Positions 23,801 through 30,073 of a DNA stretch of 64,000 nucleotides are shown piece by piece (the stretch's first letter is position 1; every line of letters begins with the position of its first letter). The position numbers were made by a program, and so were the translations under genes. Where the stretch lies: the sequence record OZ335964.1. The stretch is one strand, 5' to 3'. The notes under the pieces are model-generated. The model saw only the letters and a program-made list of their open reading frames with translations. It was not told the DNA's origin and did not search any database. The DNA comes from a phage.

Positions 23801-26044
23801 TTACAGTTTGCAAGATGAACATTCGCTAGCGTCTTCCGTACCATCAGCACCATCACGCACGTTAGCGTAATACAGTGTCTTGAGGCCGTAATATTGAGCA
23901 AATAACATATCATCTAATACATCAGCAATATCGACTTTACCAGTCTTATAAGTGCTTGGATCATAGGATGTATTGGAACTAATCGCCTGGTCGACAAACT
24001 TCTGCATAATAGCTGCCAGTGTCAGATAAGGCTTGTTACCTTTCTTGATCAGTGTCCAAAGCAAGTCAATAACATCAGCATTATTCTCTACGTTCGGAAT
24101 AACCTGATTAAATTGCCCTTCTTTCGATCCTTTAACCGATACAATCCCGCGAGGCGGTTCAATACCGTTTGTGCTGTTAGACACCTGAGAAGACGACTCA
24201 CAAGGCATCAGCGCCGAAAGCGTACTGTTACGAATGCCATATTTTTTCAGGTCTTCGCGCAGTTCTTCCCAATCCATCTCATACACCGGGTCAACCAGTT
24301 CATCTACTGTCTTTTTGTACCAGTCGATAGGCAGTTCACCGCGACCATAACGTGTTTCGTGCATCAGTTCGCAAGCACCCTTCTCTTTAGCCAGTTGCAC
24401 ACTAGCCTTAATCAGAGCATATTGCAAGCGTTCAAACGTTTTATGCGTAAACTCGTTGGCGTCTTCATATGTGAAGAAATTATCCGCCAGATATGATGCA
24501 AAGTTAGTCACACCAACACCCAGAGAGCGACGTTTTTTTGCTGTCAGAGCTTGTTCTACGGGATAATCCTGGTAATCTAACAAGTTGTCAAGTGCACGCA
24601 CCATAACCATAGCAATGCGTTCTACTTCTTCCATGTTTTCGATATCGAAATTACCTAAAACATATGCTGCCAAAGTACATAGGCTGATCTCTGAATCATC
24701 ACGCCCCATTGGTTTAGTAGGCAGTGCAATTTCGCAACACAGGTTAGATTGTTTAATCGGTGCTACATTGCGAATAAACGCCCCGTGATTGTTCATGTTG
24801 TCTGTGAACGCTGGATAGATTCGACCAGTGTTAAAACGTTCAATTGCCACCGCTAAAAACAGGTCTTCGGCTTTAACACGAGTTTTACGAACACTCGGAT
24901 CTTTTTCCAGTTTTTCGTAAAGCTGGCGGAAACCTTCCTCATCTCGGAAGTACAGATCCCACAACAAGCCACCTGCAACATCTGGACTAAACAGAGTAAT
25001 GTAATCCCGTTTAAGGAATCGCTCTACCATCAGGTTATTAATCTGTACGCCGTAATCAAGATGGCGAATGCGGTTATCTTCTACCCCTTTGTTGTTCTTC
25101 AACACAATAAGACTTTCAAACTCTAAATGCCACATTGGGTAATAGAGAGTCGCCGCCCCGCCACGAATACCGCCTTGTGAGCATGACTTAACGGCAGTCT
25201 GAAAATGTTTCCAGAATGGGATAACGCCAGTATGACGAACTTCACCATGCCCGATCTTAGATCCTTCCGCGCGAATCATGCCAGCGTTGATACCGATGCC
25301 AGCACGCTTACTAATATACTTGATGATTGCATTTGCTGTTTCGTTGATGCCCTGCAATGAGTCATCAGATTCGATCACCACACACGAACTAAATTGGCGT
25401 GTTGGAGTACGCACACCAGCCATAATCGGAGTAGGAAGAGAAATTTGCTTATTAGCAACAGCATTATAAAAATCAATCACATGTTCAAGTCGATTTTCTG
25501 TCTCTTCTTGATGTAAACACATACCGATCAGCATATACGCAAATTGCGGTGTTTCGATGATTTTCTTAGTGCTGCGATCCTGAACAAGATATTTCTCTTT
25601 TAATTGCATCGCACCAGCATAGGTCATTTTAAAATCAAGTTTATGATCGATGAATTTCTCCAGATATTCCACTTCTTCACGGGAATACTTTTGCAGAATT
25701 TCGCGATCATATTTTCCGGTTGCAATATTACGCTCAATATGGCTGTAAAAATCAATCGGTTGGAATTGACCGTATACTGATTTACGAAGCGCGAACATTG
25801 CAAGGTTACTTGCTACATATTGATAATCAGGTGTTTCTACAGTAATGTTGTCTGCGGCGACCTTAATCAATACTTTCTGGATATCGTTGGTAGACATACC
25901 TTCTGTCAGAAGTGGTTCAACCATATCAAACAATTCATATGGATCAACGTTATGACCTTCGGCTGCCGCTTCCAGAATTTTCATTACTTTTTCTTTTTCA
26001 AACGGAACAGTCAGACCGGAAGACTTAACAACATTTTTAATCAT
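23801..26044 (-). CDS. nrdA: ribonucleotide reductase large subunit
   Basis: 747 aa (T4 NrdA 754 aa); ATP-cone N-terminus, class I RNR catalytic core. Confidence 0.9.
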   Translation of the reverse strand: MIKNVVKSSGLTVPFEKEKVMKILEAAAEGHNVDPYELFDMVEPLLTEGMSTNDIQKVLIKVAADNITVETPDYQYVASNLAMFALRKSVYGQFQPIDFYSHIERNIATGKYDREILQKYSREEVEYLEKFIDHKLDFKMTYAGAMQLKEKYLVQDRSTKKIIETPQFAYMLIGMCLHQEETENRLEHVIDFYNAVANKQISLPTPIMAGVRTPTRQFSSCVVIESDDSLQGINETANAIIKYISKRAGIGINAGMIRAEGSKIGHGEVRHTGVIPFWKHFQTAVKSCSQGGIRGGAATLYYPMWHLEFESLIVLKNNKGVEDNRIRHLDYGVQINNLMVERFLKRDYITLFSPDVAGGLLWDLYFRDEEGFRQLYEKLEKDPSVRKTRVKAEDLFLAVAIERFNTGRIYPAFTDNMNNHGAFIRNVAPIKQSNLCCEIALPTKPMGRDDSEISLCTLAAYVLGNFDIENMEEVERIAMVMVRALDNLLDYQDYPVEQALTAKKRRSLGVGVTNFASYLADNFFTYEDANEFTHKTFERLQYALIKASVQLAKEKGACELMHETRYGRGELPIDWYKKTVDELVDPVYEMDWEELREDLKKYGIRNSTLSALMPCESSSQVSNSTNGIEPPRGIVSVKGSKEGQFNQVIPNVENNADVIDLLWTLIKKGNKPYLTLAAIMQKFVDQAISSNTSYDPSTYKTGKVDIADVLDDMLFAQYYGLKTLYYANVRDGADGTEDASECSSCKL

Positions 26045-26087
26045 ATTACCTCACTTCATATTTTAGCAGGAACAAGTTTATCCTCCA

Positions 26088-26107
26088 TATTGGGGGCTTT
26101 CGCCCCC
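26088..26107 (-). other. GNRA-type stem-loop (possible terminator or RNA stability element)
   Basis: GGGGGC-TTTC-GCCCCC; minus-strand reading GGGGGCGAAAGCCCCC is identical to the hairpin 3' of gene 34; no clear minus-strand T-run. Confidence 0.35.
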
Positions 26108-26113
26108 CTTTGT

Positions 26114-27346
26114 TTATACTGCCATTTGAGCGGTGATTGCTGGATGGCTTTGATAGTTGTGAATTTTAAAGTCTTTCGGAGTCTTTGTCAATACCTCATC
26201 TAATGATTTAAATTCCGGCAACTCAATTGTTGGTTTATCAAACGGAACACGGCTTAACTGTTCCATAACTTGATCAAAATGGTTTTTGTAAATGTGAGTA
26301 TCTCCACCAGAGAAAATCAGTTCTCCTACCTCAAGATCACACATTTTCGCTATGATGTGAGTTAACAGCGCATAGCTGGCAACATTAAAGGGCAAGCCCA
26401 AAAAGCTGTCTACGCTTCGCTGAAACCACATACAAGACAGTTTACCTTCATTGACATAGAATTGTACGAACGGATGACATACACCCAATACAGCATTATG
26501 TGTTCCTTGTACGTTCCATGAGTCAATGATGATACGTCGATCCGTTGGATTGTTTTTAATTTGTTCAATCACGTTTTGTAACTGGTCTTCCCAAATCTTC
26601 GGGCGATAGACATATTCTTCATCGTCTTTAGTGCTCGATGTGTCTACGTCCATACTAGCAAAGATCGTGGTATCTGGCGCTAAAATATCCCCGCCCAGAT
26701 AATCACTATCAAGCAGATAACCGAAATAACCATCATCTACCCATTCCTGGAATCCCCACAAGCAATATGCATCATTAACAAAATTAGATTGAGTCTTCCA
26801 GTGGTCTGCTACTAAGAATAGATTATATTCAGAATCAAACTCTTCATAACGCATACCACGCCAGATGGCACATAAACGGTCTTCTGTTTCATTGGTTGGC
26901 GTAAAGTCTTCTACCCACGGGTGCTTAAATGTATGTGTATATTTGCTCTTAACGCGCTTAATTTTGATTTCACCGTGTGGATGAATCGGTTTGCGTCGCC
27001 AAGCCATACCATACATATTGCCGACATTATAACCATTGAATCGCAAAGGATTCTTTTCTTTCATATCAAGACAGTTGCCGCGCCAAATGTCGAAGGCTTC
27101 TTCGTCAAACTTACCGCGTGTAATTTCCTGTAAGCGACGGCGGTCAAGTGATCCCTCCATAAACCATAGCAACTCGCCAATTACAGAGGCTGTAGCCATC
27201 TTTTTAGTGGTCAGTAAGGGGAAACCCTTGCTTAAATCGATTCGCATCTCTGCGCCGAATTTAGAGAGCGTACCTACCCCCGTGCGGTCTTCACGAGGCC
27301 AGCCATTATCAAGAACATCACGCAACAGTTTCAAATATTCTTTCAT
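26114..27346 (-). CDS. td: thymidylate synthase with large in-frame insertion
   Basis: 410 aa; DRTGVGT, RRIIIDSWN, CHPFVQFYV and C-terminal MAV match ThyA, but ~120 extra residues lie between the MYGMAWRR and IWEDQLQ blocks. Confidence 0.8.
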   Translation of the reverse strand: MKEYLKLLRDVLDNGWPREDRTGVGTLSKFGAEMRIDLSKGFPLLTTKKMATASVIGELLWFMEGSLDRRRLQEITRGKFDEEAFDIWRGNCLDMKEKNPLRFNGYNVGNMYGMAWRRKPIHPHGEIKIKRVKSKYTHTFKHPWVEDFTPTNETEDRLCAIWRGMRYEEFDSEYNLFLVADHWKTQSNFVNDAYCLWGFQEWVDDGYFGYLLDSDYLGGDILAPDTTIFASMDVDTSSTKDDEEYVYRPKIWEDQLQNVIEQIKNNPTDRRIIIDSWNVQGTHNAVLGVCHPFVQFYVNEGKLSCMWFQRSVDSFLGLPFNVASYALLTHIIAKMCDLEVGELIFSGGDTHIYKNHFDQVMEQLSRVPFDKPTIELPEFKSLDEVLTKTPKDFKIHNYQSHPAITAQMAV

Positions 27347-27587
27347 CCCACTTCACCTTTTTCTTATTGATTGCTTTCTTACGCAGTTTTGCTACTGTCT
27401 CGTCAATATCGATAAAGACAACGCCCGGATCGAATACAGTAACAGGTCTTGAAATGTCGCTATTTTCCTGTACTGGAAGCCATGACGCTTTAGCTTCATC
27501 ATAGAGATATTGTAAACCGTAATAATCTACGGCTACTGCGTAGTTTTCACTGGTAGCTGACCATAATTGAATAATGGTTATTTTCAT
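27318..27587 (-). CDS. hypothetical protein
   Basis: 89 aa from MKITIIQ (track ORF starts 9 codons earlier). Confidence 0.45.
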   Translation of the reverse strand: MKITIIQLWSATSENYAVAVDYYGLQYLYDEAKASWLPVQENSDISRPVTVFDPGVVFIDIDETVAKLRKKAINKKKVKWDERIFETVA

Positions 27588-27680
27588 TATTGTTCCCGTC
27601 CGCAATGTAAACACCGACTACCAGCAAACATCAAAGATTCACCACAATGTTTGCACTCATAATCTGTCAGAATTTTCATG

Positions 27681-28268
27681 TTACACCTTCTTACGTTCTA
27701 AAATTTGTTCGCTGATCAGGTAATCATCAAGGAAGTAATTATGTTCTTCTTTTGTTGCAAAGTCAAAATATAATTCCTGAATCATTTCCTTAGAGATACC
27801 AACATCATATTCAAATGGATCGTTGATTCCTGAACGTTGAACATACGTTAACACAATACGATCCGCAAAGTCAACCGCTTTTTCAATCAGGGAAGGTCCA
27901 CCGATAACACTTACCAAACCTTGCGTTTTCTCTAGGGCTTTTAACAGATCCTTCAATTCAATTCCAGTGTACACATCAGGTTGGTCGCCGTTTTTTGTTT
28001 TCGGTTCTGGCTTGCTGGTATCGGTGCTAACAACCACATTCAAGCGCCCCCAAAGTGCTTTAGGCAGACTTTCAAAGGTATTACGTCCCATTACTACCGC
28101 AGCAAAATCAACCTCACCAATGGTGCGGATTTTAAAGTTCTCCATATCTTTTTTGATTGGACGACCCCACGGTAAACCGCCTTTAAAACCAAAAGCCCAA
28201 TTTTCATCCGACATTTTAGTGTCACCAATCGCAAATACACATTGAATCATAATATAATCTCCTGTCAA
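27681..28268 (-). CDS. frd: dihydrofolate reductase
   Basis: 195 aa (T4 Frd 193 aa); DHFR N-terminal motif around GGLPW; synteny td-frd-32. Confidence 0.85.
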   Translation of the reverse strand: MTGDYIMIQCVFAIGDTKMSDENWAFGFKGGLPWGRPIKKDMENFKIRTIGEVDFAAVVMGRNTFESLPKALWGRLNVVVSTDTSKPEPKTKNGDQPDVYTGIELKDLLKALEKTQGLVSVIGGPSLIEKAVDFADRIVLTYVQRSGINDPFEYDVGISKEMIQELYFDFATKEEHNYFLDDYLISEQILERKKV

Positions 28269-29098: not shown

Positions 29099-30073
29099 TT
29101 ACATCGCTAACAGAGAGTCCAGGTCATCCAGATCAGAAGCGGAGGAAGTACCGCCACCCAGGTCCAGAGATGCCATCAGATCATCAGCGGAAGAATCTGA
29201 CGCCGTGCTAGCTGCGTTAATACCAACTACAGTGCTAGCTGCGGTAATACCAGAATCGAATGCATTTAAAGCAGCGTCAAAATCGTCAAGCTGGCTGTTA
29301 ATCGCTGCCGCAGCACTGGAAGCCGCAGCACCAGCTACCATAGAAACGCCCATAGTTTTCTTAAATTTGGTTTCCAGTTCATCGAACGGTTTAAACTGGC
29401 TAGGCGCTACAATCTCTCCCAGGTCAACCATGTTTTCCATCAGATATTTCTGATATGCTTCGTCTTCAATTTTCGGAAGCTGTGATTGCTGCATGAAACG
29501 AGAATCATCATAGTTCTGGTGTTTATCAACCTTCTTAGCTTTCAGGAGGAAGTTAGCACCGGAGAACACACAAGTTACATCGACCGGAACTTCGCCCATA
29601 TCGGTATTCACGTTCACCATTGCAACGATCTTATCATAAATTTTCTGACCGAAGCGGAATTTGAATACCTTACCTTCATTTTCTGGTGCTTGAGGATCTT
29701 TCAGTACCAGAATATTTGCGTAGTAAGAGGCTTTACGCTTAATCAGTTGCCATTCGGTTTTGTCGGTATTGTACAGGTCTTTTTCGTTAATATATTTGCA
29801 CACAGGGCAAGAATCAAAATCACCGTGGGTGCTGGAGCAGTTTTCCCAATACCATTTTCCATTAACTTTGAAGGAATGGTTTACCAGTTTCACAATCGGC
29901 AGACCGTCTTCTGTCTTAGACGGCAGGAAGCGAATCAGGGCTTCACCGTTACCTGCTGCATCAGTCTTAATCTTCCACTCTTTCGGGTCTTCTTTGGAGA
30001 AACCGTTGCCACCTTTCAGTGCGGCCAGTTGAGCTTGCAGTTTGGAGCTATCTTGACGACGAAACATGTTCAT
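29099..30073 (-). CDS. 32: single-stranded DNA-binding protein gp32
   Basis: 324 aa; ALIRFLPSK, NGKWYWENCSSTHGDFDSCPVC, ENEGKVFKFRFG closely match T4 gp32 including the Zn site. Confidence 0.9.
   Translation of the reverse strand: MNMFRRQDSSKLQAQLAALKGGNGFSKEDPKEWKIKTDAAGNGEALIRFLPSKTEDGLPIVKLVNHSFKVNGKWYWENCSSTHGDFDSCPVCKYINEKDLYNTDKTEWQLIKRKASYYANILVLKDPQAPENEGKVFKFRFGQKIYDKIVAMVNVNTDMGEVPVDVTCVFSGANFLLKAKKVDKHQNYDDSRFMQQSQLPKIEDEAYQKYLMENMVDLGEIVAPSQFKPFDELETKFKKTMGVSMVAGAAASSAAAAINSQLDDFDAALNAFDSGITAASTVVGINAASTASDSSADDLMASLDLGGGTSSASDLDDLDSLLAM

Follow-up and report, generated by a model that had tools for sequence, protein, structure and literature searches.

A probably decayed, endonuclease-like module translated within the thymidylate synthase of Escherichia phage RB49

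The td gene of RB49 and its in-frame insert

The 64,000-nucleotide (nt) stretch of DNA analysed here (sequence record OZ335964.1; hereafter the window) comes from Escherichia phage RB49 of the genus Krischvirus. Its td gene encodes a thymidylate synthase (Td) of 410 amino acids (aa), in which the conserved enzyme is interrupted by an in-frame insert of 132 residues, probably the decayed remnant of a homing-endonuclease-like element. The translated open reading frame (ORF) is 100% identical to td of AY343333/NC_005066. The initial annotation of this DNA gave the 410-aa frame at 26114-27346 without a strand; the ORF list confirms the frame, and the coding strand is the minus strand, as the plus-strand translation of 26114..27346 is full of stops. 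The gene and the parts of its product are arranged as follows.

26114..27346, minus strand: td, 410-aa thymidylate synthase, stop codon at 26114-26116 (ORF list; Pfam PF00303, E=1e-84)
26993..27346, minus strand: N-terminal part of the enzyme core (aa 1-118), with the invariant W116-R117 at its end
26957..26992, minus strand: entering strand of the insert, aa 119-130, KPIHPHGEIKIK (DSSP strands E118-130 and E245-254 in the AlphaFold2 model; predicted local distance difference test score, pLDDT, of the block 86-95)
26891..26956, minus strand: linker, aa 131-152, standing where full-length inserts have a module a, deleted here
26651..26890, minus strand: trimmed central module b, aa 153-232, the part homologous to an endonuclease-like family
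26597..26650, minus strand: acidic loop and returning strand, aa 233-250 (...DVDTSSTKDDEEYVYRPK), at the position of a module c plus the V-x-R-P exit motif
26117..26596, minus strand: C-terminal thymidylate synthase core, aa 251-410, with the Pfam stretch 254-410, the catalytic Cys290-His291 and the Cys codon at 26477-26479

The Pfam thymidylate synthase model (ThyA, PF00303) matches RB49 Td significantly across the whole fold, in two stretches that skip the insert, the C-terminal one aligning aa 254-410 with profile positions 110-266; the initial statement that the N-terminal, active-site and C-terminal blocks align is thus borne out. Residues R21, E58, W116, R270, R271, C290, H291, R310, S311, D313, N321, H351 and Y353 fall in invariant or near-invariant columns of alignment A2, and RB49 has all of them. 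We take these columns, by mapping the numbering onto RB49, to represent the catalytic, dUMP-binding and folate-binding set of the E. coli enzyme (R21, E58, W80, R126-R127, C146-H147, R166, S167, D169, N177, H207, Y209). The invariant residues of the C-terminal core (D254, Q255, R270, C290, H291, R310, S311, D313, N321, H351, Y353) are likewise all present. With every catalytic residue kept, RB49 Td is presumably an active thymidylate synthase.

The insert comprises aa 119-250 (window 26597-26992), the motif MYGMAWRR ending at aa 118 and IWEDQLQ starting at aa 251. The spacing between the invariant W-R and D-Q pairs is 136 residues in RB49 and 5-34 in 95 insert-free relatives, so the net excess amounts to about 100-130 aa and the figure of "~120" extra residues given at first was a fair one. 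Also upheld are the location of the insert, at the small-domain-insert loop of long-form thymidylate synthases, and its richness in Trp and Tyr, which is real though modest (Trp 3.8% against 2.5% and Tyr 6.8% against 2.5% in the remaining protein); Asp is moderately enriched too. The G+C content is 0.41 in the insert and 0.42 elsewhere in the gene. The initial annotation named two findings that would have spoken against its reading, namely an assembly artefact and a known conserved domain shared by related Td proteins. Fifty-nine Krischvirus genomes, sequenced independently of one another, have the same insert (91-100% identity), a finding that disposes of the artefact. The other point is divided: all Krischvirus Td proteins share the insert, while Td of the T4 type (286 aa) has an 11-residue loop without it; likewise no Pfam or NCBIfam domain covers the insert, but it proves to be a degenerate member of a large phage family at the level of PHROG. 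The observation itself is therefore confirmed and its reading supported, the identity of the insert not having been recognised.

In the AlphaFold2 model of RB49 Td (mean pLDDT 93.8; predicted template modelling score, pTM, 0.92) the insert is confidently folded, with block pLDDT values of 86-98 except at aa 171-180. Strands 118-130 and 245-254 are predicted to pair as a long two-stranded stalk. Module b (pLDDT 89-98, with 75 at aa 171-180) is modelled as helices 153-169, 181-193 and 199-204 and a beta hairpin formed by 210-213 and 228-231. The model of the longer enzyme of Klebsiella phage phiKp_21 (pLDDT 91.5) has an extra beta module at 156-188, a small C-terminal module, and a strand-strand-helix element at 279-305 bearing D-K-D...T-C...N.

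Homologous inserts in other thymidylate synthases

A word-indexed homologue search with the insert alone gave no match. The tblastn search with the same query detected, beyond Krischvirus, sequences of 31-35% identity in six phages (Asteriusvirus UE-S1, Klebsiella phages KP13-7 and phiKp_21, and Vibrio phages D69, D181 and D148), each of which falls within a thymidylate synthase of 477-517 aa and in the same loop. These related inserts of jumbo coliphages, Klebsiella phages and Vibrio phages span about 195-285 aa and are larger than that of RB49. Full-length RB49 Td as the query retrieved 25 long thymidylate synthases of 401-613 aa, whose alignment reveals a common insert architecture: an entry strand, modules a, b and c, and an exit strand ending in V-x-R-P. 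Module a is beta-rich, with the consensus G-x-Y-x-V-x-G-K...F-x-x-T-G...G-V-G-Y-L-G; module b reads L-Y-x-x-W-x-x-M-x-x-R-C-Y...V-C-x-R-W-x-x-F-x-N-F-x-x-D...L-D-K-D...Y-S-x-x-T-C-x-F...N, and module c G-F-K-x-Y...F-Y-S-R...R-G-L-S-R-K. RB49, like its nearest relatives, retains of this architecture just the two strands and a trimmed form of module b: a gap stands opposite module a of the 517-524-aa proteins (alignments A1 and A4), and module c is absent while the exit motif, YVYRPK, is conserved (A4). Altogether, the module is embedded in the td loop in at least 88 cluster representatives across several phage lineages.

Some of these genes carry other names. The gene of Vibrio phage D69 at L001:3638-5071 (OZ195729.1 65922-67355; identical in D181 and D148) is annotated "HNH endonuclease". 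Its 477-aa product is a thymidylate synthase (Pfam 1.9e-47, catalytic Cys present) with an insert of about 190 aa at the same loop, and the insert is the reason for the misannotation. In Escherichia phage ph0011 (OP557969.1 150341-151984) the thymidylate synthase match comes in two pieces, which underlie features labelled "hypothetical protein" and "DUF2493 domain-containing protein"; here an insert-bearing td of a jumbo phage may have been interrupted once more or may have suffered a frameshift. Many other phage thymidylate synthases found in BFVD greatly exceed the norm of 264-290 aa, among them those of Pseudomonas phage 201phi2-1 (457 aa), Aeromonas phages D3 (460 aa) and PS1 (752 aa) and Erwinia phage Yoloswag (366 aa).

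A large family of free-standing relatives

The larger inserts resemble PHROG families 2081, 953 and 374, all labelled "HNH endonuclease", which 17 of 24 match at 1e-20 to 1e-34; the full-length inserts akin to that of RB49 (31-35% identity) match PHROG 2081 at 1e-31 to 1e-34. When a profile built from free-standing members only was run against the six-frame translation of the 64-kb window, it found the RB49 insert at E=1e-12 and nothing else. With the insert profile as the query, 1.84 billion cluster representatives yielded 13,445 matching proteins (E<=1e-3), 4,371 of them at E<=1e-10. The top 146 new representatives divide into 63 metagenomic thymidylate synthases that carry the module in this loop and 83 proteins that have no thymidylate synthase part. 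Each of the latter is either 170-300 aa long, with a single copy of modules a and b, or 400-720 aa long, with two. In sequenced phages, 1,911 family copies are spread over 1,334 records, with up to five per genome, mostly annotated "HNH endonuclease" or hypothetical. The Pfam and NCBIfam collections contain no model covering modules a and b, module c had no match in Pfam, and the search of BFVD returned only thymidylate synthases and small unnamed phage proteins.

Complete free-standing genes were verified in Vibrio phage K460, Shewanella phage 1/40, Bacillus phage Bc431v3, Vibrio phage 242E40-1 and contig L018. The last of these, the metagenomic contig SRR24204718_139519, encodes a complete 264-aa ORF (P0133, L018:99-893) with stops upstream, which lies directly upstream of a polymerase/exonuclease-like gene (MPKKKIYDFDIETNG...). 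P0133 aligns with the insert profile over positions 7-238, the YRP exit motif included, and the td insert therefore looks like a complete free-standing protein set in frame. Phage K460 (OZ196711.1) carries four family copies; one of them, of 273 aa (L004:1402-2223), is situated about 225 nt upstream of a td that is free of the insert and encodes 282 aa (L004:2448-3296). Such a layout is that expected of a free-standing homing gene that would target td. The 253-aa member of phage 242E40-1 (L007:3058-3819) lies on the strand opposite to its neighbours and is annotated "putative portal protein", probably a misannotation.

Mobility of the module

The closest view of a difference in insert content is offered by two enzymes encoded on syntenic phage contigs (238/237-aa gene, 98-aa gene, DHFR, thymidylate synthase). 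The core of P0024, which has a 281-aa insert, is 92% identical to that of the insert-free P0056 and only 83% identical to that of the nearest insert-bearing enzyme. At the DNA level, 850 bp in P0024 stand in place of 92 bp in P0056, between flanks that are 77% and 81% identical, and the native 28-residue loop has been replaced, not interrupted. Because cores that are 92% identical differ in the presence of the insert, the module has been mobile. When the cores, cut free of the loop, are placed in a simple neighbour-joining tree, most insert-bearing enzymes form one deep clade, but they are polyphyletic overall, with P0017, P0023, P0024 and P0025 placed among insert-free enzymes. Between distant cores (51-58% identical), the full-length inserts are equally or more similar than the enzymes that carry them (55-57%).

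Probable decay of the RB49 copy

The positions conserved among 63 embedded and 101 free-standing copies (W106 to N183 in profile numbering) are W106, M109, R112, C113, Y114, C129, R131, W132, F138, D141, D161-K162-D163, Y170, S171, T174, C175, F177 and N183. Embedded full-length copies retain D161 in 100%, Y170 in 98%, K162 in 96%, C113 in 95% and N183 in 92% of cases. The RB49 insert keeps W106, M109, W132, F138, D141, D161, D163, T174 and F177, which are hydrophobic or structural positions, and has replaced ten others, the polar and cysteine positions: R112, C113, Y114, C129, R131, K162, Y170, S171, C175 and N183. The residues found there are E, E, F, A and H at the first five, D-S-D for D161-K162-D163, and L, A, T and D at Y170, S171, C175 and N183, respectively. 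With modules a and c deleted and ten conserved residues replaced, the RB49 insert would be unable to perform the role of the family and, judged by its residues, is a degenerate derivative rather than a functional member.

RB49 is not the only case of shortening. Independent reductions were found in P0006, a T4-like phage enzyme with gp32...frd-td-nrdA-nrdB synteny, and in P0013, from a jumbo-phage lineage whose other members keep the full insert. Reduced inserts diverge much faster than the cores that carry them (55% vs 85% and 53% vs 80%, insert vs core).

Gene neighbourhood of td

In the window td is flanked by frd (27681..28268) and nrdA (23801..26044); gene 32 (29099..30073) is farther upstream, and this order of gene 32, frd, td and nrdA is T4-like. 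A 98-aa ORF with a GTG start (27318-27614, minus strand) shares 29 nt with the beginning of td; shorter counterparts (270 nt) are annotated as hypothetical proteins in phages Phi1, G2248 and SSG23. The spacer between td and nrdA (26045-26113) is variable: it measures 69 nt in RB49, contains an extra 100-aa ORF in Shigella phage SSG23 (L010:2416-2718) and a DUF4326 gene in a more distant T4-like phage (L011:6247-6561).

Proposed origin and fate of the insert

We propose that td received, in frame and in its small-domain loop between the W-R and D-Q pairs, an endonuclease-like gene that had been free-standing. The full element, composed of the entry strand, modules a, b (helical plus beta-beta-alpha, with invariant Asp-Lys-Asp...Asn) and c, and the exit strand, would have been translated within the enzyme, spread among phage td genes and decayed after its fixation. 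In the Krischvirus lineage, modules a and c would then have been deleted and the ten conserved residues of module b replaced, with RB49 representing a late stage and the outcome being a compact, folded knob of 132 residues, which the predicted two-stranded stalk keeps at a distance from the catalytic core. Such a knob is most likely retained because the folding of the enzyme needs the folding of the knob, and only a precise in-frame deletion could remove it. That the insert is a decayed in-frame homing-endonuclease-like remnant, never spliced and kept as a structural passenger, is in our judgement the probable explanation. It may further be, although we hold this with distinctly less confidence and regard it as tentative, that the RB49 insert is the fossil of an undescribed class of splicing-free homing elements whose intact copies cut insert-free td alleles to copy themselves. 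Members of such a class would possess a variant beta-beta-alpha fold with Asp-Lys-Asp replacing the HNH histidine and would be made as part of thymidylate synthase; no intron or intein would be needed, because the loop tolerates a whole extra protein.

A number of observations weigh against the explanation that we consider probable. The "HNH" label derives from the PHROG annotation, together with a strand-strand-helix topology that is plausible and a fold match that is weak. In the PHROG scan the RB49 insert alone reached E=0.54, which is not significant; the Pfam HNH models matched none of the family members tested; and the canonical HNH histidine is a lysine family-wide. The hhalign comparison of module b with I-HmuI (sequence verified as 1u3e) was negative, and searches of PDB sequences with the whole-insert and module-b profiles gave only chance matches to CstF-77. 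Binding and cutting of DNA are putative activities of the family. The simple method behind the core tree also has to be set on this side, as do the signs of constraint on the insert, discussed below, and its high pTM, which suggests a fixed orientation of the modelled insert on the core and would also fit an acquired function.

An acquired function is the essence of the most serious competing explanation, which we nevertheless consider doubtful: the remnant would have been recruited in Krischvirus Td and selected for a new job, such as docking to the dNTP-synthesis or replication complex, non-specific binding of nucleic acids, or an influence on the dynamics of the folate site and small domain. 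Within Krischvirus, the ratio of nonsynonymous to synonymous substitution rates (dN/dS) is 0.15-0.47 (about 0.2) for the insert, a value well under 1 that is derived from small counts of 8-12 nonsynonymous changes per pair, and 0.01-0.04 (0.02) for the core; the insert is hence under relaxed purifying selection, still constrained but about 10-fold less than the enzyme. The segments DAYCLWGFQEWVDS, APDTxIF and YVYRPKIWEDQL are strongly conserved across relatives that are 50-60% identical, and the LWGFQEWVDS and APDTxIF blocks, shared by T4-like relatives with proteins of only this identity, are specific to the embedded clade rather than to the free-standing family. Taken together, the dN/dS of about 0.2 and the conserved segments point to real constraint, compatible with recruitment as well. 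The persistence of a reduced insert in two deep lineages and the defined orientation suggested by the pTM of 0.92 speak for recruitment too. Set against these points, the conserved blocks consist mostly of hydrophobic core positions that any folded passenger requires, the constraint is an order of magnitude weaker than that of the core, and the trimmed loop is polymorphic for a 4-residue indel within the genus. Moreover, T4-type Td works with its 11-residue loop, and no result points to a partner or ligand. A passenger kept for the sake of folding remains the explanation that we prefer, also over the opposite idea of an insert in RB49 that is still an active homing or DNA-cutting module spreading into insert-free td alleles. 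The homologous family does behave like mobile endonuclease genes, but the loss of modules a and c and of conserved residues that include the Lys of Asp-Lys-Asp, Y170 and N183 makes activity of this copy very improbable, and all 59 Krischvirus records that matched in the phage collection carry the insert, so that no presence/absence polymorphism is seen within the genus.

The direction of descent might also be reversed, the insert being an old lineage-specific elaboration of the small domain from which the free-standing proteins derived or which they resemble by chance. This is equally hard to credit, since the free-standing family greatly exceeds the embedded copies in size and diversity (13,445 representatives, with tandem duplications and several copies in a phage genome), the matches are of high significance (1e-12 to 1e-34), enzymes with the insert are nested within insert-free clades, and no similarity of the module to the native loops of 28-34 residues, one of which was replaced in P0024, was seen. 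Finally, td of phage T4 is well known for its group I intron. Thymidylate synthases of phages can, in addition, contain inteins (10.1101/2025.01.02.630785). For RB49, the chance that the insert is an intein, a group I intron or a sequencing or assembly artefact is practically nil, the initial annotation having already taken it to be in frame, no intron and no obvious intein. The junctions (...WRR|KPIHPH... and ...YVYRPK|IWEDQ) have no Cys or Ser on the N-terminal side and no His-Asn followed by Cys, Ser or Thr on the C-terminal side, and a Pfam scan of RB49 Td at E<=1 found nothing besides thymidylate synthase, with no match to a Hint domain. The ORF is continuous over 410 codons, 25900-27700 contains no Rfam match at E<=1, and the occurrence in 59 genomes rules out an artefact. 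An endonuclease encoded out of frame was likewise rejected: the other-frame ORFs over the insert have only 41-70 aa, none spans it, and the homologous product is the in-frame one. The substitutions in the insert follow the pattern of a protein-coding sequence that is under purifying selection.

Comparison with known systems

Selfish endonuclease genes in essential genes are, to our knowledge, thought to survive only inside self-splicing introns or inteins, or between genes. Among published systems, the closest analogue that we found is the ShiLan domain (Arsenault, Gosselin & Gogarten 2025, PMC11855218), which is inserted, unspliced, in the DNA methylase of a mycobacteriophage and hides an HNH endonuclease. 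Like the td insert, it is read through in frame in a phage enzyme gene, has no features of introns or inteins, is distributed sporadically in a manner suggestive of homing, and is predicted to project from its host protein on a hairpin-like stalk. In ShiLan, however, the endonuclease has a reading frame of its own and in-frame translation yields no more than a loop, while in td the in-frame product is itself endonuclease-like; the hosts differ as well (a methylase there, thymidylate synthase here), and what RB49 carries is a remnant that has decayed. Inteins that contain homing-endonuclease domains, and the mini-inteins from which these domains were lost, are comparable as in-frame selfish insertions at conserved sites of nucleotide-metabolism enzymes with a life cycle of invasion, fixation and endonuclease decay. 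Unlike them, the td insert is devoid of a Hint domain and of junction residues and stays in the mature protein, and its decay leaves a folded knob instead of a mini-intein.

The td intron of T4, with I-TevI, has the same host gene in a related phage and is a mobile element targeting td, but it is spliced from RNA, occupies another position and encodes a GIY-YIG enzyme, whereas the RB49 element is translated as part of Td. Free-standing endonucleases of the T4 Mob/Seg and I-HmuI types resemble the family in being small genes wedged between conserved genes, often in multiple copies, one of them near td in K460; in addition, seven of the 83 free-standing proteins scanned have sub-threshold C-terminal matches of the I-HmuI NUMOD-like kind. 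They differ in that the td-insert family has Asp-Lys-Asp for the HNH histidine and goes undetected by the Pfam HNH models and by hhalign with I-HmuI. Characterised members of the family were not found in the literature searched. The small-domain insert of the Lactobacillus casei type, of about 50 residues, shares the permissive surface loop, which we take to be the one after the Trp-80/Trp-83 helix in the thymidylate synthase structure, and shows that catalysis is retained. There is no sequence relationship between the two, and the RB49 insert is 2-3 times longer, with its own fold and homologues outside thymidylate synthase. Within an incomplete library, no publication was found on the RB49 td insert or on endonuclease-like in-frame inserts in thymidylate synthase.

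Significance

The RB49 insert is a variant of selfish insertion and not a new feature of the enzyme. It belongs to a graded series that leads from full-length modules to decayed remnants, all unspliced inside the enzyme, and intact copies at the same site in many phages are the more interesting part of this finding than the fossil in RB49. There are also consequences for annotation: insert-bearing td genes are already misannotated, as in Vibrio phage D69, and the phage family concerned, with more than 13,000 cluster representatives, has neither a Pfam model nor a solved structure. The series indicates that selfish DNA may settle permanently in an enzyme with neither an intron nor an intein around it. 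Should the intact copies cut DNA, they would represent a natural insertion of a whole domain into a well-studied drug-target enzyme and would add a third to the known ways in which homing elements persist within coding sequence.

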